Shown: positions 46,232 through 63,998 of the stretch, piece after piece
Layout of the letters: the number at the start of each line of letters is the position of its first letter
Numbering within the stretch: position 1 is the stretch's first letter
DNA from: an uncultured Spirochaetota bacterium
GTDB lineage: Bacteria; Spirochaetota; Spirochaetia; SZUA-6; Fen-1364
Direction: 5' to 3'
Assembly: GCA_963820525.1 (NCBI GenBank)
Contig: CAWGAA010000003.1
Span: 160,001 to 224,000, forward strand
DNA length: 64,000 bases
The notes under the pieces: model-generated
The model's input: only the letters and a program-made list of their open reading frames with translations
Told to the model about the DNA's origin: nothing
Databases searched by the model: none
Program-made: the position numbers and the translations under genes

Positions 46232-47902
46232 GTGGAAAACTGTACGATGTCTGATCCACTAGCAATAGCAGAGCTTTACCGTCAATCTCTCAAGAAAAGC
46301 CAAGATCAGAATCGCCGAAGCACTCTCGGCCAGTTCTTAACCCCGACGGTGACTGCCCGCCTCATGGCCTCCATGAGCACACACTCGCGCAGTCACCTCC
46401 GTTTTTTGGACGCAGGCGCCGGGGCGGGAGCACTCACTGCCGCGTGGGTGGCCGAGATCTGCTCTCGAGCCCGTCGCCCAAAGGAGATTTCTCTCACCGC
46501 CGTCGAAGTCGACGAGAGGTTTCTTCCCGAGCTCAAGCGAACGCTAAAAGCATGCGAGCAATCGTGTACGGATGTCGGGATCCTCTGCCGTTGGGAAATC
46601 AAGCACGGAGATTTCATCGAGATAGCGGTACACGCACTCGATGCCGATCTTTTCAAAACCGAAGATACAAAGTTCGATGTAGCTATTCTTAATCCTCCAT
46701 ATAAAAAACTAAGAAGTGATTCGGCAGGCCGGAGTCTTCTTCACCGGCTCGGCATCGAAACAAGCAATTTCTACACGGCCTTCACCTCCCTCGCCGTACT
46801 CCTTTTAGAGAAAGGTGGAGAGCTGATCGCCATTACTCCCCGAAGCTTCTGCAATGGGCCCTATTTCCGGCCGTTCCGCCGTCACCTTTTAAAGCAAACA
46901 AATCTTACCCATTTCCACGTCTTCGAAACCCGGGATCAGGCTTTTCGCGACGACGAGGTCCTCCAGGAGAATGTCATCATCAGGGTAGTGAAAGGATTGC
47001 CCCAGCAATCTCACCTCCTAATCTCGCATTCCCGCACCCCCGATGACCCCCAGGTGATACGAAACACCGTTTTTTTCGAACAGGTCGTCAAGAAAGGCGA
47101 CCCACAGTATTTTTTCCATTTGGTTCCCGATGACAACGGTCACGCGGTTGCCCGGGCCATCGAGAGCCTGCCTTGCAAGCTGTCCGATCTGGGGCTCACC
47201 GTAAGCACGGGCCGTGTCGTCGACTTCCGCGCTAGGCAGTGGATCCGGATGGCACCCTCCGCAGATACCGTTCCCCTTATATACCCCGCTCACTTCGAAA
47301 ACGGCGCTGTGCGCTGGCCTAAGCCTCATATAAGAAAGCCGAACGCAATCTTTCTAAACGATGAGAGTGCCGTTCTTATGGTTCCCGCGGGCGCATACAC
47401 ACTCGTCAGGCGGTTCTCAGCGAAGGAAGAACGCCGGCGTGTGGTCGCCGCCGTCTTCGAATCAACAGGAATGTCTTTTCCTGTTGTCGGCTTTGAGAAT
47501 CATCTCAACTATTTCCATCGCGCCGGTAAACCCCTTGATCCTATACTCGCCAGAGGGCTTGCGGCATTTCTTAACTCCACACTCGTGGACAGCTACTTCC
47601 GCCAGTTCAATGGTCACACGCAGGTGAACGCCGAAGACCTCAGGGCCTTGCGCTACCCCGCTCAGAATGTTTTAATCGCCCTCGGGCGCCGCGTTGGGAA
47701 TACACTCCCCGAACAGGACGCTCTGGATTCAATTGTAGAGGAAAAGATCAGGCAGGATGAAAGTAAGCATTCGGCAACGTCGCATAGCCGAAGCCCGGAA
47801 CGTGCTGGCGGCTTTCGGACTACCCAAGGAACAGCAAAACGAGAGAGCCGCCCTCACTCTACTCGCCCTTCTCGATCTGCCGCCCCAAAAATCGTGGACT
47901 GA
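46232..47902 (+). CDS. Type II N6-adenine DNA methyltransferase (BsuBI/PstI-like; start may be 46247)
   Basis: GQFLTP, LDAGAGAG, ILNPPY, ITPRSFCNGPYF, STGRVVDFR, RRFSAKEERRR, FENHLN, FNGHTQVNA. Confidence 0.92.
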   Translation: MENCTMSDPLAIAELYRQSLKKSQDQNRRSTLGQFLTPTVTARLMASMSTHSRSHLRFLDAGAGAGALTAAWVAEICSRARRPKEISLTAVEVDERFLPELKRTLKACEQSCTDVGILCRWEIKHGDFIEIAVHALDADLFKTEDTKFDVAILNPPYKKLRSDSAGRSLLHRLGIETSNFYTAFTSLAVLLLEKGGELIAITPRSFCNGPYFRPFRRHLLKQTNLTHFHVFETRDQAFRDDEVLQENVIIRVVKGLPQQSHLLISHSRTPDDPQVIRNTVFFEQVVKKGDPQYFFHLVPDDNGHAVARAIESLPCKLSDLGLTVSTGRVVDFRARQWIRMAPSADTVPLIYPAHFENGAVRWPKPHIRKPNAIFLNDESAVLMVPAGAYTLVRRFSAKEERRRVVAAVFESTGMSFPVVGFENHLNYFHRAGKPLDPILARGLAAFLNSTLVDSYFRQFNGHTQVNAEDLRALRYPAQNVLIALGRRVGNTLPEQDALDSIVEEKIRQDESKHSATSHSRSPERAGGFRTTQGTAKRESRPHSTRPSRSAAPKIVD

Positions 47903-48707
47903 AGCCACAGATCCCCTTCAAGGCGTTACCCCCATCATGGAGTTCGCCGCCAAGCACTACAAGAAAAACTGGGCGCCCAACACCCGGGAGACCGTCCGCA
48001 GGTTTACCCTTCATCAATTCGAACAGGCCGGTCTCGTAGTCGCCAACCCCGATGAGCCAGACCGCCCCACCAATAGCCCCCTCTATTGTTACCAGATCGG
48101 ACCCCGAGCGCTTTCGGTCATTCGAAAGTTCGACACGAAAGAATGGGAGATGTCGCTCCGCCACTACCTTGCCGACGCGCGTACTCTCACACAACGCTAT
48201 GCTCAGGTCCGCGATATGCGCCGCATTCCTCTAGTCCTTTTGCCAGGAAAGGCGATCAAGCTCTCGCCGGGCAAGCATAACGCTCTCATCGAGAAGATTG
48301 TGGCTGAGTTCTGCCCCCGCTTCACTCCGGGCGCACGACCCGTCTATGTCGGCGATACGGGAAAGAAATGGGCTTACTTCGATGCCGCCTACCTTGAAGG
48401 CCTGGGCGTTCATGTCGAAGAGCATGGCAAGATGCCCGATCTCTGTATCCATTTTGTTCAGAAGAACTGGGTTGTTCTCATAGAGGCGGTCACAAGCCAC
48501 GGGCCTGTCAACCCCAAACGACTGGCAGAGCTGAAGAGGTTATTCTCAGGCAGCAAAGCGGGACTGGTGTTCGTGACGGCGTTCCCGGACAGACGAACAC
48601 TAATGAAATATATACAAGAGATCGCATGGGAAACCGAAGTGTGGGTCGCGGAAGCTCCAGATCACATGGTCCATTTCAACGGTGAACGGTTCCTCGGGCC
48701 GTATTAG
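47757..48707 (+). CDS. BsuBI/PstI family type II restriction endonuclease
   Basis: APNTRETVRRFTLHQF, LSPGKHN, HGKMPD, LIEAVTSHGP, IAWETEVW, HFNGERFLGPY. Confidence 0.92.
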   Translation: MKVSIRQRRIAEARNVLAAFGLPKEQQNERAALTLLALLDLPPQKSWTEATDPLQGVTPIMEFAAKHYKKNWAPNTRETVRRFTLHQFEQAGLVVANPDEPDRPTNSPLYCYQIGPRALSVIRKFDTKEWEMSLRHYLADARTLTQRYAQVRDMRRIPLVLLPGKAIKLSPGKHNALIEKIVAEFCPRFTPGARPVYVGDTGKKWAYFDAAYLEGLGVHVEEHGKMPDLCIHFVQKNWVVLIEAVTSHGPVNPKRLAELKRLFSGSKAGLVFVTAFPDRRTLMKYIQEIAWETEVWVAEAPDHMVHFNGERFLGPY

Positions 48708-48755
48708 CAAAGAAAATACGCGGCTCTGTGCAAAGGTTTGATTACATCCCTTTCC

Positions 48756-49046
48756 GCCCGGCGGAAACGGTTCCGGGCTGAGCTTACCCGTGGGGGTCGC
48801 CCTGACGGGCTCCAGGGCGGGCCGCGCGGCGCCGGCTAATAGGCCCATTATCCGGACGCCGCGCTCTCCCTCAGCCCGGAACTTCGCCATTCGGTGCGGC
48901 ATTATTTTAGGACACGGCTCGGCCCTCCATGGCCTCGCCGCTTCCGGCCGTTCCCGCGGCGGCTCTCCGCCTACCGCTATCATCGGGCCATGTCTGCCGC
49001 CCCTTCAGGGTTGGCTGAGCACGCTGCAGCCCAACTTCCGCCGGGC
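48756..49046 (+). repeat. Structured non-coding element, copy A (~290 nt)
   Basis: Closing stem 48756-48766/49036-49046 (11 bp perfect), stem 48770-48782/48870-48882 (13 bp perfect) enclosing two hairpins, and a 33-bp block 48911-48943 identical to copy B. Confidence 0.8.
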
Positions 49047-49254
49047 CTGGTGGGCGCGTGCGCTGTACTGCTCAATCCGCACTGCAGGACTGGTCGCCGA
49101 ACCGTGAAAAAAGACGACAGCGGACGCTCGGCTGCTAACCGAATGCACTGCAAGCCCGGGCAGGAAGGTAACCGTCAAATAAACCCCACCTTGCGGCCGG
49201 CATAAAAAGCCGCGATCCTGAGCCCACTCAATTCAGGGAATCAGGAGGCCGTAG

Positions 49255-49596
49255 ATGGAGTCAAGACAGGAGAATCGAAAACAACCACGCAGAAACGCAG
49301 AGAAATGGAGCGAGCTCATCACCGCGTGGCGATCAAGCGGGAAGACGAGAAAGGCATGGTGCCAGGAACAAGGGATACCCTACGAATCCCTGAGGCGATG
49401 GGTGAAGCGATTGCGCGGCTCCGCCGACGGATTGTCATTTGTAGGAATCCGCGACACATCCCAAGCCCTGGATGCTGCGGAGCAGGCGCGCGTGAGAGTA
49501 AGCAGAGATGGAGATATTGAACTGTATGGAAACATCGGCGAGGAGCTTCTGCGCAGAGTGCTGCGCGTGATGCGGGAGACGGCTGATGTTCATTGA
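49255..49596 (+). CDS. tnpA: IS66 accessory protein TnpA
   Basis: W..LI.AWRSSGKT...WC....I...SL..W HTH pattern. Confidence 0.85.
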   Translation: MESRQENRKQPRRNAEKWSELITAWRSSGKTRKAWCQEQGIPYESLRRWVKRLRGSADGLSFVGIRDTSQALDAAEQARVRVSRDGDIELYGNIGEELLRRVLRVMRETADVH

Positions 49597-49934
49597 ATGG
49601 AGCAACGTCAAGATATTTGTTCGTCCGGGCGCGACGGATTTGAGAAAACAGATAAACGGACTGGCCATCCTGGTACAGACGGCGATGGGCAAAGATCCGC
49701 TTTCCGGACACCTCTACCTTTTCAGCAATCATGAGAAACGTCTCCTGAAGGTGCCTGTACTGGGATCGAAACGGGTTCTGCATGTGGCAGAAAAGGCTGG
49801 AGCGGGATCGCTTCCCCTGGCCAAGAACGGAAGAGGCAGCGCGGGAGATCAGCTTGGAGCAGCTTCGGATGCTGCTTTCGGGAATCGACTTCTGGAACGC
49901 GCACCAGAGCCTCGCGTATACCGCGGTCGTATAA
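49586..49934 (+). pseudogene. tnpB: IS66 accessory protein TnpB, +1 frameshift at 49754-49755
   Basis: TDLRKQINGL...LYLFSN...LLKV; the conserved LYWDRNGFCMWQKRLERDRFPWP continues in the shifted frame. Confidence 0.88.
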
Positions 49935-49973
49935 AAACATCTAGATTTTAAGGCCCCATCATGGTATTCTCAT

Positions 49974-51620
49974 GTGGTGAACGAAAAACTGGGAGAACTA
50001 CCGAACAACGTCGAACAGCTGCACGAGCTGGTTCGACGGATTGTCAGGGAGCACGATGAAGAGCTCGCTCGACTGCAGGCCGAGTTGGAGAAGGAGCGCA
50101 GCGAACGAATCGAGCACCAAAACAAGGCCATAGAGCATTTCGAAGAGCTGCAGCTTCTGCGGCGCAAGCTCTTTGGCCGCAGCGCCGAGAAGCTATCCGA
50201 GGAGGAGCAAAAGCAGCTTCTTCTTTTCAACGAGGCGGAGGATATCGTATTCAGCCAACAACAGGAGCCTGCCGCCGAGGAGCGCATTGAGGTAAGGGCG
50301 CACACGCGGGTGAAGCGGGGCAGAAAGCCGCTGCCGCCTGAGCTTCCCCGTGTGGAGATGGTCCACGACATAAGTGAAGAAGACAAGAAATGTGCCTGCG
50401 GACAGGAGCTTACACGTATCGGAGAGGAAAGCCTCGAGAAACTTGAGGTCATCCCGCCCCAGATACGGGTACGGCGGCACCTGAGACCCCAGTACGCCTG
50501 CAAGGCCTGCGAAGGCTCCGGGGATGAGGACCGTCCCGCGGTGCGGATCGCCCCGGCGGTGAGGCAGCTTCTTCCCAAGAGCATCGCCTCACCGGCACTG
50601 GTGGCCTACATAATGACGGCGAAGTTCTGCGACGCCCTGCCGTTCTACCGCCAAGAGAAGCAGTTTCAGCGCATCGGAGTAGATATCAGCCGCCAGGACA
50701 TGGCCAACTGGAGCATCGCGGTATTCCATAGGCTTGCGCCGGTTATCGAGCTACTTCGAGCAGAGATTCGAAGAGGCCCGCATGTAGGAATCGACGAGAC
50801 GACCCTTCAGGTGATGGGGGAGCCGGATCGCCCCAATACTTCAAAGTCGTATATGTGGGTGTTCCTGGGAGGCAGTCCGAAAAGACCCGTGGTTGAGTTT
50901 CAGTATCATCCCACACGATCCGGTAAGGTTCCCCTTGAGGCTCTGCGGGGTTACAACGGCTTCATCCAGACTGATGGCTATGACGGATATAACGAAGTGG
51001 GAAGCCAACCCGGAGTCATTCACGCGACCTGTTGGGCGCACTCGCGTAGAAAGTTCTTCGAGGCCAAGGAGGCATCCAAGCAGGCGGGAAGTGTCGATGA
51101 GGCCCTGGCACGAATCGATGCTCTGTTCAGGATCGAGCGGACCTTAAGAGCTCAAGAGCTTTCACCGCAGGAGTTCGTCCGCCAACGGCGAGAGCAGGCC
51201 GAACCCGTGTTGGAAAAGCTCAAGGCGTGGCTTCACAAGCGTCAGGGGCAGGTTCCCCCGTCTCTGCTTCTGGGCAAAGCGATCGCCTACACCATCGAGC
51301 AGTGGCCCAAGATGATTCGGTACCTGGACAGTCCCGATTTGGGTCCGAGTAATAACGCGGTCGAGCAGGCGATACGGCCGTTTGTGGTGGGAAGAAAAAA
51401 TTGGATGCTATCTGGGAGCCCCGCGGGCGCCGAAGCCAGTGCGGGGTGGTACAGTATCATCGAGACGGCCAAACTGAACGGCGTGGAGCCCTACCTATAT
51501 CTTCGCTACATTCTCTCGCGGCTTCCTGAGAGCGACAACCCTGAGGATTATCGTGAGCTGCTTCCCTGGAATGTTCCACGCGAGTCTCTGCTGAACTTTG
51601 ATTCCGGTCATTTGTTCTGA
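49974..51620 (+). CDS. tnpC: IS66 DDE transposase TnpC
   Basis: LFGRSAEK, KFCDALPFYRQ, IDETT, QTDGYDGY, CWAHSRRKF, NNAVEQAIRP, SIIETAKLNG. Confidence 0.96.
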   Translation: MVNEKLGELPNNVEQLHELVRRIVREHDEELARLQAELEKERSERIEHQNKAIEHFEELQLLRRKLFGRSAEKLSEEEQKQLLLFNEAEDIVFSQQQEPAAEERIEVRAHTRVKRGRKPLPPELPRVEMVHDISEEDKKCACGQELTRIGEESLEKLEVIPPQIRVRRHLRPQYACKACEGSGDEDRPAVRIAPAVRQLLPKSIASPALVAYIMTAKFCDALPFYRQEKQFQRIGVDISRQDMANWSIAVFHRLAPVIELLRAEIRRGPHVGIDETTLQVMGEPDRPNTSKSYMWVFLGGSPKRPVVEFQYHPTRSGKVPLEALRGYNGFIQTDGYDGYNEVGSQPGVIHATCWAHSRRKFFEAKEASKQAGSVDEALARIDALFRIERTLRAQELSPQEFVRQRREQAEPVLEKLKAWLHKRQGQVPPSLLLGKAIAYTIEQWPKMIRYLDSPDLGPSNNAVEQAIRPFVVGRKNWMLSGSPAGAEASAGWYSIIETAKLNGVEPYLYLRYILSRLPESDNPEDYRELLPWNVPRESLLNFDSGHLF

Positions 51621-51999
51621 ATAAAGCAGGAGCGCACCCCCTCGGCGTCCGAATTCAGGGGTGGGGTTTATTTGACGGTTACGCAGGAAGTAGACAGAAC
51701 CACGTTCTGTCTACCCGCAGGGGCGGCCGTATGGCAAATGCTGCCAACCGAATCAAAGAACATCAGCGGACACGGCCATCAAGCGGCGAGGCCATGGAGG
51801 GCCGAGCCGTGTCACATATGAAATCCGCCCCGAAGGGCGAGCGAGGGCTTGAGTTCAGCGCGGACTTCCGATAACGGCCGGCGTTATCGGAAGTCGCGCG
51901 GTACTCCCAGGAGCCGCGCAAGCGGCTCCACCCAGGCAGAACTCAAGCCCGAAGCCGCTTCCTGCCCCGGACTTGCTAATGGTTAGTGTCGGAGTCACC

Positions 52000-53283
52000 T
52001 CAGTTCGTCGGTGGCCAGATGAGTGTACCTTTGGCGTTGACGTAACCCACCTTCATTGCAGTACCATTTCCTAACATTATTCGAGCAACACCGTTCTTGA
52101 AAGGCGAAACCGAATCATACAATGAAGGGACCACCGTCTTTCCTTTCTTATCGATGAAGCCATACTTGCTCTGACTACCACTCCTCACCCTGAAGTCTGA
52201 CAGTCCCTCCGAGTAGCCTCCCAGTCTATACGCCTGCATCTCAAAGAGCAGTGCGCCATTTTTGTCGATAGCACCCCACTGGGTACTTCCTTTTTTATCA
52301 GTCGTTGTCACTATGGCTACCCCATTGGAGTATCGGTCCACGCTGGAGTATGGAAGCCTTACTTTCACGAACCCTCTTTCATCAATTAGTGCGTATTGCT
52401 CAGTTTTGCCCTGTTGGTAGCTGACAACGGCTATACCATCATCGTAGCGATCGATTCTGTCATACTTCGGGACAACGATCATCTTCCCCTGTTTGTTGAT
52501 AAGCCCGAACTTGCCTTCTCTTTTAACAATTGCTAATCCATTCGGCTGAAAAGAATCACAATCCTCGAACTGCAGTCGTATGATCTCATGGCCAGATGTA
52601 TCAATATAGCCCCATTTCCCGTTGAGCGAGACTGTAGCGGTTGCATCAGCGAAGTATCCACAGTAGTCATATTTCAGTGGAATCACGACCTTACCTATTT
52701 TGTCGATGTATCCGCTCTTTCTGTTCTTCGTAACGGGAACCAACCCACTCCGGAAGCCATATCCGATTACAGGGTCGTTTGAATGCTGCCAAGCATTGTT
52801 GAGATCATATTCATACTGGGGTTCTACTACTATCCTTCCACCCAGATCGATGAAGCCATACTTGCCACCGGTCACGATGCAGGCCATCCCTTCGAAGAAA
52901 GGAAACACTTGGTCAAATTGGAACTCACCGACAGGGTTACCGCTCAAGTCGATATAACCCCATCGGTCGCCTAGCTGCACCTCTGCCCGTCCTTCCTTGT
53001 AGTTGCCTACCGCGCTATATATGGGATCAGCAACAAGCCGACCCCCGTCATCTATGAACCCCCATTTTCCGTTCAGCTGGACTCCAGCTCTATTCTCGTG
53101 GAATGGATATACTTTTTCAAAGGTTGGCTCAATCACGACTCCGCCAGTAGCGTTTATGAACCCAGCGCGTCTGTTCTTTGTTATAGGCAGGTAGACATCA
53201 CTTTTGAGAGCAGTGGCTTCCGCTACTAGCGGCACAGTTCCAGCCAAAAGGAGTAGCAGTGCGATCAGTCGTCGGCTCTTCAT
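52000..53283 (-). CDS. Secreted WG-repeat protein, candidate immunity protein
   Basis: Signal peptide; repeated KWGFID/KYGFID/RWGYID..G...I..(F/Y)....F.EG; low GC; directly downstream of the RHS gene. Confidence 0.88.
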   Translation of the reverse strand: MKSRRLIALLLLLAGTVPLVAEATALKSDVYLPITKNRRAGFINATGGVVIEPTFEKVYPFHENRAGVQLNGKWGFIDDGGRLVADPIYSAVGNYKEGRAEVQLGDRWGYIDLSGNPVGEFQFDQVFPFFEGMACIVTGGKYGFIDLGGRIVVEPQYEYDLNNAWQHSNDPVIGYGFRSGLVPVTKNRKSGYIDKIGKVVIPLKYDYCGYFADATATVSLNGKWGYIDTSGHEIIRLQFEDCDSFQPNGLAIVKREGKFGLINKQGKMIVVPKYDRIDRYDDGIAVVSYQQGKTEQYALIDERGFVKVRLPYSSVDRYSNGVAIVTTTDKKGSTQWGAIDKNGALLFEMQAYRLGGYSEGLSDFRVRSGSQSKYGFIDKKGKTVVPSLYDSVSPFKNGVARIMLGNGTAMKVGYVNAKGTLIWPPTN

Positions 53284-53293
53284 CCGCCATCCC

Positions 53294-56200
53294 CTATTTC
53301 GTTGCTTTGTAGGGCGGAGTGAATATGAGGAAATAATCCGCATCCCTCCCAGATCGACCCGTGATAAAGGCTTCCGTTGCGACGAACCACTTGGTCGCAT
53401 CGGCTTTCCAAATGCCGGCGGTTGCCGGGTCTTTATTATTCGGGTCGATGCCCCCACCTCCAATAAGTGTATCTCCGTTGGTTTGGCTTCCTACTACCCA
53501 TGCAGAATGCCCATGAACAGCAGTAGCCGATGTGTTCCATATTTCAGCAACCGTATATCCCTTGTTTTGGTATACCTTTGCTTGCGACTCTGTTTCCACT
53601 TCCCGAATTACATTCCTCATTGTTGGATCTTGAGCCATCCTGTTGTACTCATCATATCGCTCCGCTGAGCTGCGCATACCTCGGAGCCTGGGATCTATCT
53701 GTATCTTCTGGCCAACCTGCTCAAACGCAGTCCCGCATGTCCACTTGTCCTCAGCCGTGCTACTTATGTTCTCGGCCTTGTTGGCAACATCGCTGATAAC
53801 ATCAAGAAACTGGGCGGGATTTGAGAACGTTGGAGCCGGCATGCTGTCACGACTCACGAAGTTCGCCATAGCGTCTTTAGCATCGATAAATCTATCCCAT
53901 ACCGCCTTCACCGCCTTCTCCGTTCCTCTCTTGAGCGTTCCTCCAATCTTCCTCGCTTCTCCATAGATGTCCTTGAAACTCAACAGTCCCGTGGGATCCG
54001 TGTACGCCATCGGGTTATTGTTGACGTAGGCATACCAATTGTTTCCATCCCGTGCCGGGTCCTCGGTAATGAATCTTCCGAGTTGTGGGTCATACCATCT
54101 GGCGTTGGTGTAATACAGGCCTGTATCCGGATCCAGCTCGCGGCCTGTGTACAGGGCTTTGAAATCAATCGACCCGTTGCTCCTCGAAATCTCTCCAAAA
54201 GCCTCATACTCGGCATCCCAGACGATTTTCCCGGAACTATCGGTGACCACATTGGTCGTCCCTTCGTGATCGGTGTGGTGCCAGTAAATAGTGGTGGTTG
54301 TTCCCGAGGTACGCACTTCCGCCCAGATCTGCCCCAGGACTTCAATATACTTCCTCTGTTGGATTCCGTCTTCAGTCCAGAGCAGATCTCCGGACAGGTC
54401 ATATTGGTAGTAGCTTACGGTGGAACCTTTAGTTGTCTGAATCCTCAAGTCACGGATATTGTAAGCGTAGCGGGCGGCTGTCTTGATTCCGTTCGCTCCC
54501 TGAAGCGAGTGATCCACTTGGATCAGGCGGTTCTTCAGGTCATAGGAGTATTGCCAGACCTCTCCTTGGGCTTCATCCCAGGTGAATCTATCGGTTGTAG
54601 AATCCCATGTTCCTTGGTTCCCGCGCGAGGTCAGATTACCGTTCGCGTCGTAGTTGAATGCCCAGCTTCCCGCCTGCTTGATGCGGCTTGAGCCGGGGTA
54701 ATAAGAGTATTCCGTGTTGTTTGTGTAGCTTCCTTTCGCATCGTATTCCGTGAGCCTATTCCCCAAGGCATCGTAGGTCCAGGAGGTCATATGGCCGTTG
54801 ACTGTGAACCAGACCTGGATGAGCTTGGATGGAGAATCGGCGATTGTAGAATTATCGATTGCCCTGTTAGAGCCGTCTCTTTCGTCCCATGTCATATGGA
54901 CCTTCACGAATTGGGCCTGGTGGGAGTCTTTTAGCTGCAGCGTCACCCCTGTTTCATCTTGCATCCACGTAGTGTCGGTGACCTTTGACCAACTCACAGA
55001 TGTTCCCTCGTTGCTTGTATACAATTCCACGGTTCGGGGGCTAATTCTAGGGCTGACACCTACGAGCCTGACTTTGTTGACATTCCTCGAGGTTTGGAGA
55101 TTGATGCCAACACTCGATGCATGATAGTCCAGCTTGACAGGTGTGGCGGAAGCAGTGTAGCTGAGGGAGTTTCTGCCGGCCACGTCGCGCTCGCGTCTTC
55201 CATAGTCAAGTCCGCCTATATCTTTACTATTTACCTCAAACTCACCATCTTCATTAACAAGGACCAACCGGTTGAGCTTATCGTAGCCGTATGAGCTGTT
55301 ATGCCCTTCCTTTACGAGGTTAATGAGGTTTCCTCGATTGTCCCACGCCAGAGCCCGGGAGGTTTTTTCAGAAATGTGCCAGTCATACCCATCGAGTGTC
55401 CCTCGGATCGGATCCCAACTCTTCGTCCTCTGTGTTCTGTTGGTGGCGGAAAGGCTTGTGAGTCTTCCCATGAAGTTGTACAGGCCGCCAGTGGCATAGC
55501 TGGGGACATCCGTTAGCTGTCCAAGACCATTATAGAGGTAGCTTATAGTAGAATTGTCAGGGTATGTGATACTCGTCACGTTATGAGCGTTGTCATATGT
55601 ATAGGAGACACTGAGATTCTTTGAGCCGATAGAGGTGCTGTAGCTATTAATCAAATCGTAGGGGTCAGGGACATACGTCGTCCCCGTCCAGTTTATCTGG
55701 GTGAGCACGCTGCCCTCGGTTGCGGACTTCAGGGACCCTGCGGCGTCGTAGCTCCAGGATTCGCTTACGAAACGGCTGCCGTTGGAGAAGCTCTTTGAAA
55801 TGATCCGTCCCGCGTTGTCATAGCTGCTTGTCACAGTGGTCTGGTTGGGATCCATTGCCTGGATCACGAGGCCCCGCGAGTCATAGCTGAAGGCCCACTG
55901 TTGGCCCAGATTGTTCTGCTCGTAGACAAGCTCTCCGTATTGGTTGTATCCACGCACCCATACCTGATTTCCGTTCTGGGGGTTTCCGAGCATGCTTTGA
56001 ACGGGCTCTGCCCAGACATCGTAAACGGTACTCGTGACGTTGTTGTCGGGGTCGGTCACGGAGGTTGGCTTATTCAGGCTGTTGAAAACAGTATTGGTAG
56101 TATAGTCCATGGCGTCGGTGGTGCTAGTGGCACGGCCCAGGAGGTCCAGCCCCAGGTGCTCTTCTCTTCCGTCGGGGAAGTAAATATCGGTGAGACGGTT

Positions 56201-59200
56201 CAGACTGTCATAGATTTTTGCAGTCACCAAGCCGGAGCTCAGCTCGGGTTTGGCCGTATTCAGGCTTGACACGACGATTTCCCTGACCGGGTTTCCCTTG
56301 GCGTCATAGCCCCAGGCCGTGACGATGGGCCCTGTGCCGTCTGAGCCCGTTATGCTTTGGCTGGTCTTGCGATTACGTGGATCATATGTCCACACAGTCG
56401 CTTTGCCCGCCGGATCAATCTGCTCGACCGCGTTTCCACGAAGGTCGTAGGATATCTGCACCTTCCCGCGCGGCTGCCCGGCTACCGGTGGCAGATCCGC
56501 CAGCACGAGCCTGTCAAAGTCGTTATAGGTGTAGTTCAAGGTGAAGCTGTCTGAAACCGAGGGATCGGGATTGGATCTTGGGTCCTTCATCTGGGTCTTT
56601 CGATCCTTGAGATCGTAGCGGTATCGAACAACACCGCCCGTGGGATCGGTCTCACTTGTCACCTGGTTCCGGCTGGAGTAGCTCGTCAAGCTTATTCCCT
56701 GGATCCCGTCCAGGTCCAAGTTATTGCTCTTGATCGACTCGACAACAAGCGGATCGGCGTGCTTGACAAGGTTTCCTGCGGCATCGTACCAGCTCCACTC
56801 CTCACGAGTTCCCACGGTCTTCTTGATCGTTCTTCCAGCCGTGTCGTAGGTGAAGTCGGTCGAGCGGTAGTTGCCGGGGTGCCCTGTCTGCTGCCTAATG
56901 GCCTGCCCGGCATCATCGAAGAGGGTGATCTCAGTGGGCACTACGCTGGTAAGGGATACTGTTGGGAGACTTGAGGAAGCGCTGGACGGGCTTTGCCAGA
57001 CATCGACCGGGGGATGGCGCACCTCCCTGGGCTTACCGAAGGGGCTGTACCACGTGACCGTCTTTTGTCCCAGTGGGTCGACAACCGCGACAACCTCTTC
57101 AAGGCCGTTGTAGTATGTTTGCGTGACAGCATTGATCCCGCTTGGGTCCACAATTTTGGTTTGGGTATTGCCCTTCCACGTCACCCATTCCTGGGTGATG
57201 ACCCTGCGCTCATCCGTTGTTGTTTTAAGGTTTTGCGAGTCGTCGTATACGGTGCTGATATGAGCGCCGTCGGGATAGGATATCAGTGAAGGCCTTCCCT
57301 TGGCATCGTATCCATAGATGGTTGTATGACCGTTTGGATCCGTCACCGATGCGACATCTCCCCAGGGACTATAGGTCACGAGCGTCTTGCTATCTTCGAC
57401 AACGGCAAGAGTAACAAGAGCGCCGTTCTTAACGCGCAAATAGTTGAACTTGTCAATTTGGATCAATTGGCCAAGGTTGTCGTACCTATACACTTCGGCT
57501 GCTTTTCCTGGAGCATTGTTCGCACCAGAGCTGAAGGAAGATTTATATACGGTGGCGGTCAGCGCGGTATCGTTGTAGACAATATGGTCCCACGGTGAAT
57601 TGGTATGAGTTACATTCCAGCTTCCCGGGCTCAGCGGAGCTTCTTCTCCGGCTCTGATTGTGTCCGTGGCCCTACCCAGCTTGTCGTAGCCGTATTCCGT
57701 GACGTATCCCCTGCTGTCTTTCTCGTAGAGCTTCCAGCCGCTCCGCCAATCCGTGACGGTTTCACTGACAACATTCACGCCGTTGCCGGTGGGGTCTGCC
57801 ACGTTTTGAACGGTCTGTGTGGCGATGAAAAAGTCCTTCGAGGACCGGGTGAAGTCGTATTCCCAAACCGTCTTCTGGTCCGGGTTTGGGCCTATCTTGC
57901 TCTTGACCATGCCTGAGGAAAGCAAGCCCGTATCGGTGAAGTATTCGTAGTCCGTCCTTGCCCAGTGGTCTCCCAGCCACAGCCCTTCTGATTTCTTGAG
58001 GCCGTAGGAGTTATAGAGATACTGTTGGGCCCGCTCATCGAAGCCGCCGCCGGCTTCAGCGGGACGGTAGCCGCGAACAAACGTGCCCTTGAGAAGATCG
58101 TGTATCTCGCCATTGCTCAATGTTTCATCGGCTCCAAGGGAAGGCAAAGCCCATACCGAAGGTGCGGAAGATCCGCTGTTCAGGTACCACATCCACTTCT
58201 CGCACTTGTTCTCCCTTCCATTTGCGACACTATCTTCCAAGACATAAGTCTGGTTCCCCCAGCTATCGTATTGGAACGCATTAGAAGAACGAGCGCCCGA
58301 TCCGCGGATTGTGGTCGAAGCGGTGATGCGGTGATGCGTTGTATCCCAGGTATTGGACACCGATTCAAACATGCTCCCGCTCGATGCGTCGTAGGTGCTT
58401 GAGCCGGATTGAAGGGTTGAAACTTCGTTCACAGTCAGCCCTTCGGAGGAAAAGTATGACTGAAGAACGGAAGTGAGGTAGTCATCCCAACTAATGAATC
58501 GGTTGCGTGAGTGCACAATCGTCATGAAATCCTGAACGGTTTTCAGTCGCCCATTATTGGTTGTTGCCCGACTCACATAGAACTGGTACTCCCTGGAGCT
58601 CCAGTCATAGGAATAGTAAGTGTTTTGCACCACCCCGGTGCTGCTCGTCACTTTGACATGGTCCGTGGCCAGCCGATAGATAATATCGTAGCTGAACTTG
58701 ATCGCTGTCGGGATCAAGCCCAAGAACCAATCATCCAATTCAGACTTGAACTGCGTCAGATCCATAGCAGCTACATTGACCTCCGTGGTTCCGATTCCCG
58801 GAGCGACGACCTTGCTTATTGTGTAGGGGAAATTGAACTCGATATGCCCACTTAAGGTCAAAGTGCTTATTCCCAAGAGCGTATTGACAAATCCACATCC
58901 GGGTATTAGGTCAAAAATAAGGGCCAAAAAGTTTATCTTCACACTGCCGCCACCGGCCACCAGGCATCTGCGGTCATATGTGAAGCTGGAGATTCTGCCC
59001 GCCGGATCCGTTGAAGAGACTAGTGTGGGCAAGAAATTGAAAAGATACCACAGATCGCTTGAGGCATCCCAATCGTAGTCATAGTTCACTGTCCGGTTCT
59101 GGCCTTCAAAGCCGGAAGTGGAGATATTGGTAATGACAGGCTTCAAAAAGATAGCCACATTTGGAGGCATATCGTACTGGAAGTTGACTTTCCTCCCCAT

Positions 59201-62200
59201 ATCATCGGTGATGCTGGACAGCAGAAGCCCGTTGTAGGTGAGGTCAAAGCTGGAAAACCCCGTCTTGTCTTTGATCTGTACCACCCTACCGTTTCCGTCA
59301 AAAAGGTAGTACGTTCCGTCCTTTGTCCACAGCTCGCATGCGATGGTATTCCAGCCCGGGATGAGGTTGGTTAGGCTTATTTCTTGGTTTTGAAGGACCT
59401 TACGCAAGCCGGCAATTGCTATTCCAGTAACATCTATACTGTCCCGGACCTGTACGGCACGGAAATGAAAATCTTCCCCTTCGTGAAACTGGAAATCCAG
59501 CGTCCGTGAAACCGGATTTGACCAGAAGCTGTTCTGGCTTTCCATCTGGTTAATACCGTAGTAGCCGCCGTTGGGAAGCCTTACCATTACCGTTGAGTTT
59601 GTGGTAACCACGTATGGCAGGCTTAACCGCCATCCAACGCCGGTCGATAAAGCGTAGTCTCCGTTATGTTTTAATAAGCCGTCAACCTTGCTCTTGATAG
59701 CCCCTACCAAATTGGCTGTGCCGTTTGAGGCCAATTGTCCCGCCAGATACGCAAGGCTGCCAAGGGAGCCAAGGTCGTAAGCCCCCAAGCTGATCGAGGC
59801 GCTTAACGATACACTGGGACTATCCACCATTGCCGTGGCTGTGTCGTACATTCGCTTTATCGGCAGAGTAAATCCGTTCTTGCCTTGAAGCACAAACTCC
59901 GTGACTTCCACCATCGCCGTTCCCCCTTGAGGGGATACCGTCACCGCCCCCGTGGAACTTTCCGCCTTGAAGGGACTGTGTCCGGCATCCTTGAGTTGCT
60001 GGGGCGAAAGATCCTGTATCATCGTGGGTTGAACGGAAAATGCGGTAAAATGGTTGGTGAGAAAGACTATCTTATTCTGGTCGCGGTCAACGGCCGATCT
60101 CTCAACAAGGAACCACTTGTTCCAGGTGGTGTCAAAATAGTATACGCCAAGGTTCGCTTCCGGAAAACCGATGGGAACCTGGCTGTCATCATAGTCGAGG
60201 ACCACCACCACTTCTTTCGAGAACTCCGTGTGTGTGTTTTCGCTCAGCGTACCGTCCGCCGCGAGCGCCAGGGTGCTCAGCGAGTAGATCGGCCCGAGGA
60301 TGGGATAGCTGGAAGCATCTTTGAGTTTCGGGCTGTCTATCTTTTGTATTAGGACAACCTTATCCTCTTCAGGAAGCGCCGCCGGAGGTATCACCACCTC
60401 CATTCCTTTGTAATCTACGACGGTTGACTGTTGTGGATCCGAGGAAATCACCTGTACGGCCAAACCCGATATCGTGTCCCGCGTCTGGGTTATTGGCCCC
60501 ATGTTGGCGGCGCGGTCTTCCGCCCAGACCTGGTAGCTATAGACTTCCCCATTGCTTAAGCCCGTGTCGGTGAACTCAAGAACGGAAACGATATGCTCAC
60601 CATCGCTCCAGGCAGGCAAGCGGACAACGTGATACCGCACCACGTCGGTGTTCACAGTTTTCCAAATCACCTCAACCAGGCCCGAGCCGGGTATGGCGGC
60701 AAGCTCGCTGACGGCGACGGGCGGCGTGGTATCTATCTTGAGCTCTATCGATTCAATGCTGGCGTTTCCCGCCACGTCCAGAGCCTTCACCTGGACCTGG
60801 TGAACTCCATCGGAAAGTAGGGGCAGCTTGTAGGGGCTTGCCTGGCTCGTCCAGCTTCCCGAATCGAGTCGAACCTCATAGTGGGAGATTCCCGAATAGC
60901 TGTCAGTTGTAGAGAATGAAATGGTGGGCTGGTTGTTGCTCGTCCATCCCGTGATATTGGCCGCAATGATAAACCGCGCGGGAGGAGTATTGTCGATCTT
61001 AAGCGGTATGCTGACCTCAGACCCCGTGGTTCCCGCCTTGTTCACGGGCTGCAGCTTGAATACAAAGGCGCCTTCCACCGTCATGGGAATCGTCAGGCTG
61101 AAGGATCCCGAAGAGGCGTCATAGCTAACGCCGTTTACCACGATGCGATCGGGATCCGCACTGATCACCTTTCCATTGACCGGAACCGCGTGGGAATAGA
61201 ACGTGTTTGCGACGGGCTGCGTAATGCTCAAGCCCGGTTTCGAGCGGTCCAGAAACACCTGAAGCGTTTTCGTCACCGGCTTGATGCGGTCATCAGCGGT
61301 GACGGAAAGCGTGTTCATGCCGTCCGAAAGAGCGATGGGCTGGCCGGCAAAGCGGTAGCCGTCCACATTTGCCGCTTTTCCATTTACGGTGACCTTTACC
61401 CGGTTTTTGCTTATCACAGTGCCCGTAACGGTGAACCTGGTCGCGCTGACGTAAGCCACGCTTCCCTCACCGTCTAGTGACAGGATTATCCCTGGGCCGA
61501 ACCGCACGATCGTCACCGTGGCCTTCTTGATCACGGCGCCCGTTTTCACGTCAAAGGCGTAGATGGTAATCGTGTTGATTCCGAATTGAAGGCTCACTGT
61601 ATAGGTGAACGCATCCGAGACAACGGGAACTTCCTCGCTCCCCGCCAGGATGCGGACATTCGAATCCTCTACCCATCCCGAAAGCTTGTAAGTTTCGCTT
61701 TCGGTTGTGATCGTGCGGCTGGAGTCGAACCAGAACTTCACGATATCGTCGGGATCCTCACCGACAAGCACTCCGATCGAGCGGCTCGCAAGGATGTCTT
61801 TATCCTTCAGGGCTTGAACCGAAATCGTCGTCAGGCCTTTTCTGTCCAAATCGAGCGTTCGTAGAGGAATCGTAAAGATATTGCCGTGAATCCAAGCCTT
61901 GTGTCCGTTGACCCTGACCTCCACGCCTTCCCGGTCTACCTCTCCGATCAGGTAGTCGCTTCTGCAGTCTCCTCGGGACAGGCTTTGCCCGTTTTTGGGC
62001 CACAACACCTCCACACTCGCGGCGCCCGCCTCGTTCAGGTCTCCCCATGTTTCAATTTCGCCGATACCGCCTTCCCCGGCAGTAACATCTACCTGGCTCA
62101 GATCCCCCCACGAGGAGTACAGTTTCCCCCCGTCCTCGGAAATGTACTCACCCTCGGTCCATCCGCCGGCGCCGTCGGGCATCAAGAGCTGCCCGTTGCC

Positions 62201-63562: not shown

Positions 63563-63566
63563 ATTC

Positions 63567-63998
63567 TCACCGATTTCCACTATTGCCCGGAAGGGCGTTC
63601 AACTCATCCATCGTGATCTGAGTGATCCCCTGCCTGTAGTAGTTCACGCCGTTGTTGAAGAAGACACTGCTAAGCACCCCATATGCACCAGCGCCATCCT
63701 CTTTAATCCCGTACTCGATGTTATCCGTAAACGTGGCGCCGATTAGGTTCATCGTCCCCCCCAAGAGGTGGATGCCGATGAGATCCTCACTCAGCACTGC
63801 CTGGCTGAGGCTCAAGCTCCCTGCGGGAAGGAGGATAAGGCCCCGCTCCGCGCACTGTAGCTCCAATCCGCTGCCGCTCGCAGTGCCTCCCACCGTAATC
63901 CCGCGCCACAATAGCCCGCTGTAGATCGCATCGAAGACCGAGCGCGTCCCGGAGTTCGCCACGGTAAGCAGCGCGCCCGAGTCAACGACAATCCCCCC
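63567..63998 (-). CDS. 3' end of a gene with right-handed beta-helix-like C-terminus (truncated by window edge)
   Basis: Frame open to the window edge; WRGITV...IGIHL...FTDNIEYGIKED...FFNNGVNYY; stops 4 nt before the RHS ATG. Confidence 0.65.
   Translation of the reverse strand, partial: GGIVVDSGALLTVANSGTRSVFDAIYSGLLWRGITVGGTASGSGLELQCAERGLILLPAGSLSLSQAVLSEDLIGIHLLGGTMNLIGATFTDNIEYGIKEDGAGAYGVLSSVFFNNGVNYYRQGITQITMDELNALPGNSGNR

Follow-up and report, generated by a model that had tools for sequence, protein, structure and literature searches.

The ends of integron cassettes, the attC sites, carry RYYYAAC ... GTTRRRY core sites that close one imperfect palindrome of about 55-140 nt. Here we describe a larger folded element found in a 64,000-nt stretch of DNA (hereafter, the window) from the 5.05-Mb genome of an uncultured Spirochaetota bacterium, whose contigs we label C1, C2 and C3. 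Two such elements, copies A and B, are folded, non-coding and about 300 bases long, and lie back to back between a restriction-modification (R-M) operon and an RHS toxin locus. They are members of an undescribed, lineage-restricted family of ~300 nt and roughly ten helices, which we named M1; M1 elements are 2-5 times longer than attC sites and contain about ten helices instead of one imperfect palindrome. Together with a second structured family, M2-M4, they mark the outer edges of horizontally variable conflict cassettes, whose contents are an RHS toxin tip with its immunity gene, R-M systems, toxin-antitoxin (TA) systems or other defence genes.

The M1 family and its fold

Copies A and B are homologous and can be aligned over their whole length, as the initial annotation of this DNA had proposed. 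Copy A (48754..49050, + strand), of subtype 2, is matched by our covariance model R1 with 175.7 bits (E about 5e-47), and the main body of copy B (51684..51976, - strand), of subtype 1, with 269.5 bits (E about 5e-73). The coordinates agree with the distances first given for them, A starting 48 nt past the stop codon of a restriction endonuclease gene and B 23 nt past that of a WG-repeat gene. Their 3′ ends are separated by a spacer of ~104 nt (49047..49150) in which a promoter and terminator scan found no sigma-70-like or terminator-like site; the sole terminator-like match of the window scan (49285-49300) is inside the insertion sequence (IS) that splits copy B. The identical 33-mer that had been noticed in both copies (48911..48943, +, in A; 51781..51813, -, in B) is an exact repeat that occurs exactly twice in the window, where 100 shuffles give an expectation of 0.

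In copy A, the closing stem P1 pairs 48756-48766 with 49036-49046 (arms GCCCGGCGGAA/TTCCGCCGGGC), a long stem pairs 48769-48781 with 48871-48883 and the final hairpin spans 49010-49035, all on the + strand, as read from the sequence and the model alignment. For copy B, the helix map of the model places the 5′ strand of P1 at 51976-51958, the long stem at 51950-51939 with 51856-51845 and the final hairpin at 51714-51690, on the - strand; a distal 3′ piece (49151..49168, -) is made of the remainder of the closing strand (49151-49160) and one copy of an 8-bp target duplication (49161-49168). The fold of copy A is more stable than those of 100 out of 100 shuffles on both strands (z -3.8 and -5.1).

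The M1 fold is strongly supported. In an alignment of 15 copies made with MAFFT only, RNAalifold predicts 66 pairs, 26 of which show double compensatory changes. In a 32-copy alignment, which was fitted to the model and leans towards its structure, 92.5% of 1808 cells are paired versus 40.5-49.1% with partners slid by 1-3 columns, double changes are found in 41 of the 66 pairs (16-22 with partners slid) and the covariation score is 0.287 (at most 0.058 with partners slid); the observed values were reached by none of 500 shuffles. The early proposal of a conserved, large multi-helix element with compensatory base changes is upheld by both alignments (26/66 and 41/66 pairs), and the covariance-model search for homologues gave 32 copies whose pairing exceeds that of slid and shuffled controls.

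P1 is 8-17 bp long; its inner GGAAG/CTTCC is conserved and its outer 3-10 bp are variable yet complementary. The P1b-P2 stack bears hairpins P3 and P4, the AAU/AUU tip of P4 being invariant, and is followed on its 3′ side by the conserved core hairpin, a variable hairpin, a GCCGCCCCU segment and a final hairpin of 8-11 bp beside P1. The core hairpin, the most conserved of all, is held by the 33-mer (CGGC..GGCC-CTCCAT-GGCC..GCCG), and its pairs are either invariant or covary between GC and CG (A4 pair 300:437: GC in 21 copies, CG in 5). Strong conservation is also seen in loops and junctions, namely GGAAGCGG, the P4 tip and the NTCCNT loop of the core. Two families of the order retain both long-range helices, P1 and P2, and the ordered set of ten helices.

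Two helices of the initial annotation did not generalize. Pairing between the 5′ end of the 33-mer and a downstream GCCGT(G/T) is a perfect 8 bp in copy B alone; over 15 copies 53% of the cells are paired, which does not exceed the slid controls. The TTCG-loop hairpin, which had been listed as a feature of both copies, degenerate in A, is 81% paired with no covariation; a rival long-range pairing with GCCGCCCC is 85% paired and two of its pairs covary in a 19-copy alignment; both the TTCG hairpin and the competing pairing are possible.

Model R1 was built from 15 copies and is independent of the exact core pattern; the genomes in our set are metagenome-assembled genomes (MAGs) or short contigs, and relatives among them are not independent. 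At E≤1e-8, R1 yields 32 M1 copies in total. It matches 11 of the 92 genomes of the same order, with 1-4 copies each: the positive genomes belong to the genus of the window genome, to its sister genus (8/21) and to two genera of another family. None of 150 other genomes sampled from the phylum is matched. The window genome has exactly four copies, as found with a profile of A and B and later with the covariance model: A, B, copy C (C1:1362165-1362464) and the 5′-truncated copy D (C2:473925-474131). A scan with the exact core pattern returned 17 loci in reference genomes and 32 in metagenome contigs, of which 3 and 16, respectively, are whole elements according to the profile, several being duplicates of one sequence; the remaining loci are chance matches in GC-rich coding DNA or unrelated repeats. 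The matching reference MAGs are assigned to Spirochaetaceae, Spirochaetia or Spirochaetota. Neither M1 nor M1 plus M2-M4 has a blastn match among 72,556 plasmids, and a scan of viral contigs gave no M1 and one isolated core hairpin.

The view that the element belongs to no named family also stands. Rfam 15 has no match at the gathering score in the window; at E≤1, five element-bearing loci gave only an unrelated snoRNA at 20 bits, and loci L007, L059 and L092 gave rRNA matches only. No description of such elements was found in the literature searched, which included passages of a preprint on the mining of non-coding elements.

A tree of 30 copies separates a subtype-2 clade (Shimodaira-Hasegawa-like approximate likelihood-ratio support, SH-aLRT, 99), which contains A, C, D and the copies trailing defence or TA genes, from subtype 1, which comprises the rest and takes in all copies trailing RHS-plus-immunity genes. 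As both subtypes are present in several genera, the split is old. Copies within one genome are 60-80% alike. In the window genome, a single compensatory variant of the core (GGCC/GGCC) is shared by all four copies irrespective of subtype, suggesting conversion.

Several copies are rearranged or adjoin mobile genes. Genome G022 has a chimera (L084 7671-7973, on its contig C18) that joins the first ~250 nt of subtype 2 to the reverse-complemented initial ~70 nt of subtype 1 and keeps the closing stem; it looks like a deletion within a tail-to-tail pair. Copy D adjoins ~800 nt from the 3′ end of a 23S rRNA gene (model positions 2144-2973 of 2987), together with a 5S gene, matched by Rfam rRNA models at L007 8202-8925 and 9222-9335 (about 474200-475335 of C2); this fragment may reflect a rearrangement or broken rRNA operon, or an assembly join. 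An IS110-type gene overlaps a truncated M1 in G078 (L093 773-2089), IS200-type genes lie 1-3 kb from M1 copies in G015 (L090 6538-7020) and L033 (548-985), and a DUF772 transposase is found beside the M1 of L036 (1-669).

Gene context and orientation of M1 and M2-M4

The position of M1 was tallied for 31 copies, leaving out the 32nd, a 147-nt fragment in G022. In 24 of them a same-strand open reading frame (ORF) of at least 70 aa ends -6 to 125 nt upstream, mostly 10-60 nt. Five of the other seven are truncated or at contig ends, the copy of G078 has no such ORF, and the subtype-2 copy of G004 lies upstream of, and divergent from, a methyltransferase-HNH operon, pointing away from that cargo. 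Relative to the upstream gene, 24 of the 31 copies are thus co-directional versus 1 clearly divergent. ORF calls are noisy in DNA of 60-70% GC, and some of the ORFs counted as downstream genes overlap M2-M4 and are probably spurious. The sequence upstream of M1 is not conserved between copies, no sigma-70-like promoter was found between stop codon and element at copies A and C, and the 3′ ends of A and B show no intrinsic terminator, i.e. a GC-rich hairpin with a T run. One weak terminator-like site lies 250 nt past copy C and, like everything else in the promoter and terminator scans, is not above shuffle expectation.

According to Pfam, an RHS or other toxin tip followed by a small ORF precedes seven copies in six genomes (copy B, G004, G014 twice, G021, G075 and, with an M23-peptidase tip, G011), and a Pesticin-like toxin with a 298-aa ORF precedes a copy in G022. 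Other copies follow R-M systems (copy A; L056, of XhoI type), a methyltransferase-HerA system (copy C), the BrnA antitoxin (L033, L039), HTH_3 proteins (L027, L036, L045, L038), NYN-domain proteins (L028, L047) or DUF6788 (G008); for several, the upstream context has no Pfam family. The initial annotation placed the element beside accessory genes, and it does adjoin RHS toxin-immunity, R-M, TA and other defence genes; that it travels with cassettes is conjectural, as neither a target duplication nor an excision product nor a dedicated recombinase was observed.

The window genome has three full RHS loci, and all four of its M1 copies are at their 3′ junctions, copy B behind the immunity-side gene and copies A, C and D facing an RHS locus from the opposite side. 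Its two RHS paralogues have a common core up to about position 53948 of the window but 3′ flanks without homology in the same orientation. Across the order, RHS-repeat content as found with Pfam could not be correlated with M1, the search being too insensitive: G004 scored 0 despite an RHS gene beside its M1. In G014 (L085 7276-9258, contig C21), an RHS gene with an NlpC/P60 tip is followed by a 174-aa ORF, a mini-M1 limited to the 5′ domain, an orphan tip, a 184-aa ORF and an M1; the orphan NlpC/P60 tip shares 46% identity with the last 155 aa of the RHS protein encoded upstream. M1 pairs are arranged tail to tail in three genomes (the window genome, G004 and, as the fused chimera, G022), and the subtype-1/subtype-2 pair recurs beside non-orthologous genes in two genera.

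About one third of the M1 copies are followed by further modules, M2, M3 and M4, which also occur alone. M2-M4 is a second structured non-coding family of ~200-330 nt: in M3, a long stem surrounds the reverse-complemented M1 core, giving an A(N)GGA(N) loop, and M4 is a C-rich/G-rich hairpin. In ten aligned copies, 14 of 38 predicted pairs show double changes, and the corresponding model, R2, finds 1-6 copies in each of 20 genomes out of the 92 of the order. In the window genome, copies were located at C1:1362534-1362737 (L006 8470-8740), at L007 7670-7876, and at C1:1248641-1248852 and 1253840-1254047 (L059 4645-4851 and 9843-10048). Kissing of the core loop of M1 with the loop of M3 was considered and dropped, the variable loop positions showing no covariation between loci on inspection.

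Five inverted M2-M4 pairs were found (L059, i.e. C1:1248641-1254047; L106 2593-7105; L107 2201-6152; L108 2372-9776; L109 2062-2667), all in (-,+) order with both members facing away from the content between them. This content is a caspase-TIR operon in the window genome, a Type ISP R-M system in G020, a DUF4357-containing trio in the first pair of G016 and a RadC-methyltransferase-ResIII set in G022. The second pair of G016 encloses ~216 nt only and looks like an empty docking site. One weak same-orientation M2-M4 pair occurs in G004. Taken together, the inverted M2-M4 pairs, the tail-to-tail M1 pairs and the divergent G004 copy give an orientation rule: every element faces away from its cargo.

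The R-M operon preceding copy A begins with an Eco57I-type N6-adenine DNA methyltransferase gene (46232..47902, +; Pfam Eco57I, 1.3e-12) and ends with a BsuBI/PstI-type restriction endonuclease gene (47757..48707, +; BsuBI_PstI_RE, 2.7e-60, and N-terminal domain, 1.4e-48). In G015, a PstI-type R-M system with a homologous methyltransferase and an endonuclease 74% identical to that of the window abuts a subtype-1 M1 in the same convergent arrangement; G015 has no subtype-2 copy, and a different gene precedes its M1. Copy B follows a WG-repeat protein gene (52000..53463, -; WG_beta_rep, 3.8e-79), a candidate immunity or accessory gene of the RHS locus, which encodes a 3428-aa RHS-repeat protein (53294..63580, -; RHS_repeat, 1.8e-58, and RHS core, 1.6e-9) and is closed by copy B. 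Called from their first start codons, the two ORFs overlap by ~170 nt (53294-53463), and the WG-repeat gene probably has its true start further downstream.

The split of copy B by an IS66 element, as initially described, is confirmed. The 2515-bp IS66-family insertion (49169..51683, +) lies within the closing stem and is recognized by its terminal inverted repeats, GTAACCGTCAAATAAACCCCACC, by Pfam domains (DDE_Tnp_IS66, 2.1e-96, and TnpB_IS66) and by an 8-bp target duplication, GCAGGAAG, at 49161-49168 and 51684-51691. Its ORFs lie at 49255-49596, 49586-49951 and 49974-51620 on the + strand. An IS-free junction (49159 to 51683) is present in one metagenome contig and is weak, with a depth of 2 and a shorter side of 22 letters; apart from this contig, no other joint was found at the elements in the contig pieces of four metagenome DNA runs. 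Contigs of two metagenome runs are one base short at position 49753, within the tnpB-like second ORF, possibly a frameshift or an assembly error; in the window, the Pfam match of this ORF covers only positions 1-49 of 101.

Possible roles of the elements

We tentatively read M1 and M2-M4 as cis-acting RNA modules on transcripts leaving the cassette, with a role at the 3′ end or as insulators. Four observations lead to this reading: the outward orientation, the intrastrand covariation, the G·U bias and the start just past a stop codon with no promoter-like site. G·U and U·G cells outnumber A·C and C·A cells in M1 (89 vs 42), one G·U being retained in 24 of 27 copies (A4 pair 49:153), and M2-M4 shows the same bias (~31 G·U vs 12 A·C, counted from the pair table). 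This favours the strand that is sense with respect to the upstream gene; by energy z-scores the two strands cannot be told apart. Of the initial alternative of a structured RNA or a folded single-stranded DNA (ssDNA), either may apply to the structured element, with the G·U counts favouring the sense strand. Given the outward orientation, any transcript leaving the cassette, in either direction, would include the elements on the sense strand. What is observed at these loci is homology, fold, strand bias, position, orientation and gene context; from these we infer that the elements may be transcribed and act as RNA. They would then form the 3′ end of the outgoing transcripts and protect it, and could keep read-out from entering the adjacent locus, which is usually convergent, by stopping or insulating it. 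The core hairpin, nearly invariant and with an NUCCNU loop, would be a putative docking site for a host factor.

Several points weigh against an RNA role of this kind. The elements contain no classical terminator made of a hairpin plus a U-tract, and a ten-helix fold of 300 nt with conserved loops far exceeds the needs of known 3′-end stabilisers. The copies that lie on the 5′ side of a cargo (the subtype-2 copy of G004 and the right-hand M2-M4 of L059, L106 and L107) have no co-directional gene to provide the transcript. The G·U test is soft, since alignments and structures were made or chosen on the sense strand, and the apparent invariance of the core is inflated because most copies, the metagenome ones especially, were found via the exact core pattern. 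Lastly, the outward inverted geometry, the empty pair, the mini, truncated and chimeric copies and the IS insertions are also expected of cassette ends or mobile DNA.

The foremost alternative is that both families act as DNA: they would be sites of recognition or recombination at cassette ends, either in a system independent of integrons or in mobile cassettes that lack a transposase and are moved in trans. Folding as single strands during replication or transfer would allow the insertion, exchange or displacement of toxin tip-immunity units and of defence operons. We regard this as possible, if doubtful. Inverted M2-M4 pairs around four different defence cargos and one empty ~216-nt site agree with it, as do the tandem tip-immunity-M1 units of G014, the recurrence of the subtype-1/subtype-2 pair beside non-orthologous genes in two genera, and the PstI-type R-M that abuts a subtype-1 M1 in both the window genome and G015 though the gene before M1 differs. 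The placement of the four copies of the window genome at the 3′ junctions of three full RHS loci, and their common GGCC/GGCC core variant, suggestive of conversion, point the same way. However, no recombinase or transposase is consistently near the elements, the integron integrases lie elsewhere and the attC motif of the genome is absent from the window, no target duplication was seen at the ends of the 13 delimitable copies, many units are one-ended, and the copies are few (1-4 per genome), old and divergent. Moreover, the known DDE-type ends need no intrastrand pairing, and the known ssDNA transposons have both end hairpins on one strand and not inverted; no DNA mechanism is known to select inverted, strand-specific folds. 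A specific version, in which a candidate recombinase would recognise folded ssDNA ends of ~200-300 nt and swap tip-immunity units or defence operons at docking sites, the empty G016 pair being an unoccupied site, appears to us somewhat unlikely.

The high-copy occurrence of the core 22-24-mer in two proteobacterial MAGs (33 and 18 sites), together with the mosaic of hairpin modules in the region, the IS in or beside copies (IS66 in B, IS110-type in G078, IS200-type in G015 and L033, DUF772 in L036) and the truncated and chimeric copies, would instead suit a selfish mosaic, comparable to repetitive extragenic palindromes and bacterial interspersed mosaic elements (REP/BIME) or to miniature inverted-repeat transposable elements, that resides in dispensable DNA between convergent accessory genes and is foldable only to aid its own spread. 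This we hold to be unlikely: there are 4 copies in the 5-Mb window genome and 1-4 in others, the 60-80% likeness of copies within a genome speaks against a recent burst, no target duplications were seen, the orientation bias to the upstream gene is strong (24 vs 1 of 31), P1, P2 and the ten ordered helices are kept across two families, and the five Y1-transposase genes of the window genome are identical, of IS200 type and not adjacent. Less probable still is an independently transcribed, protein-binding or sponge RNA that would regulate adjacent toxin or defence genes in trans, with the UCC-loop core hairpin of M1 and the GGA-loop hairpin of M3 as putative binding sites. The high conservation of loops and junctions, the reverse complement of the core with its A(N)GGA(N) loop in M3 and a size and complexity like those of large orphan RNAs agree with such a role, but no promoter-like site, conserved upstream sequence or partner protein was identified, the M1 and M3 loops show no covariation between loci on inspection, and the start 10-60 nt past a stop codon in most copies fits co-transcription. 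That the elements are only a conserved non-coding flank for swapping RHS tip-immunity cassettes by homologous recombination, the fold having no role, seems highly improbable: although all M1 copies of the window genome are at RHS 3′ junctions and seven copies in six genomes follow a toxin tip and small ORF, a homology arm cannot account for 41 of 66 pairs that changed on both sides and still pair, the 3′ flanks of the RHS paralogues in the window genome are not homologous in the same orientation, and many copies follow non-RHS genes.

If the cis-acting RNA reading is true, horizontally acquired toxin and defence cassettes would be equipped with large dedicated RNA end-caps or insulators, a class of cis-element not described before and one that would bear on the domestication of dangerous genes. 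If the DNA reading is true, integrons would be joined by a second cassette system, defined by structure, that acts on polymorphic toxins and on anti-phage defence. In both cases, M1 is a large structured element, well supported and absent from the databases, and a practical marker for variable toxin and defence cargo in metagenomes.

Comparison with described systems

In placement and in its definition by fold, M1 comes closest to attC sites. Like them, it is non-coding, defined chiefly by its fold, placed directly after the last ORF of a cassette and co-oriented with it (24/31); its cargo is likewise enriched in TA, R-M and similar systems, and large integrons are present in the same genome. 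It differs in having no RYYYAAC/GTTRRRY ends, in a G·U bias that indicates the top and not the bottom strand, and in its layout, the copies being convergent or inverted, not tandem, and not arrayed by intI. The attC sites of the window genome are canonical and end in CTCAACAGCGTCGTTAGGCG, a motif with no match in the window at up to 2 mismatches; a gapped attC pattern of our own composition, which was too strict, gave no site even genome-wide. The integron integrases lie at C1:1954228 and C1:682092, and the M1 copies on C3, C2 and at C1:1362165; no connection of the integrons with the present locus was found. An attC identity of M1 is ruled out by size, end motifs, array context and strand.

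REP/BIME elements resemble M1 in being hairpins between convergent genes, mosaics of modules and targets of IS, the transcription of M1 being presumed. The core hairpin of M1 differs little from a REP-like unit that is present in high copy in two proteobacterial MAGs, where the core 22-24-mer (CTCGGGCATCCATGCCCTCGCC...) has 33 and 18 sites at up to 2 mismatches versus 0-1 for a reversed-pattern control. Such core repeats were located at L011, L012, L015 and L024 (G242), L017 (G245), L010/L013 and L019; the core also occurs in intergenic repeats of other phyla, and in one proteobacterial MAG it stands beside a GGTTTCTGTA...TACAGAAACC hairpin that resembles that of M3. Taken alone the core hairpin resembles a short GC-rich REP palindrome, but in M1 it is one helix of a larger fold of 300 nt enclosed by long-range closing stems. 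Moreover, M1 has 1-4 copies per genome (4 in the window genome) where REP elements have tens to hundreds, and no RAYT-type gene is adjacent; the Y1 transposases of the window genome are five identical IS200-type copies, none adjacent to M1.

With mobile insertion cassettes the elements share the bracketing of a 3.5-7 kb cargo by inverted copies of ~200 nt (M2-M4) with no recognisable transposase, and the empty pair. The differences are that neither target duplications nor a cognate IS sharing these ends turned up (no direct repeat was seen by eye beside the closing stem of 13 delimitable copies, where duplications of 2-3 bp could escape), that the M1 and M2-M4 ends show intrastrand covariation and strand-biased G·U pairs, and that many units are one-ended. 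Readings as a diversity-generating retroelement, a retron, a group II intron or an omega RNA were set aside, with no reverse transcriptase, IscB or TnpB nearby and no Rfam match. In size, number of helices, strong covariation, narrow phyletic range and residence in mobile or accessory DNA, M1 is akin to the GOLLD, ROOL, OLE and HEARO/omega RNAs; it departs from them by its lack of an Rfam match and of an IscB/TnpB-type or prophage/tRNA context, and by being fixed at the 3′ ends of genes and paired in inverted orientation. Finally, the tandem tip-immunity units that follow a full-length RHS gene in G014 recall the orphan toxin-immunity modules of rhs and cdi loci. In contrast to those modules, the orphan tip has no stretch of RHS core for homologous recombination, the alignment beginning at the toxin domain, and each unit closes with a conserved structured element.

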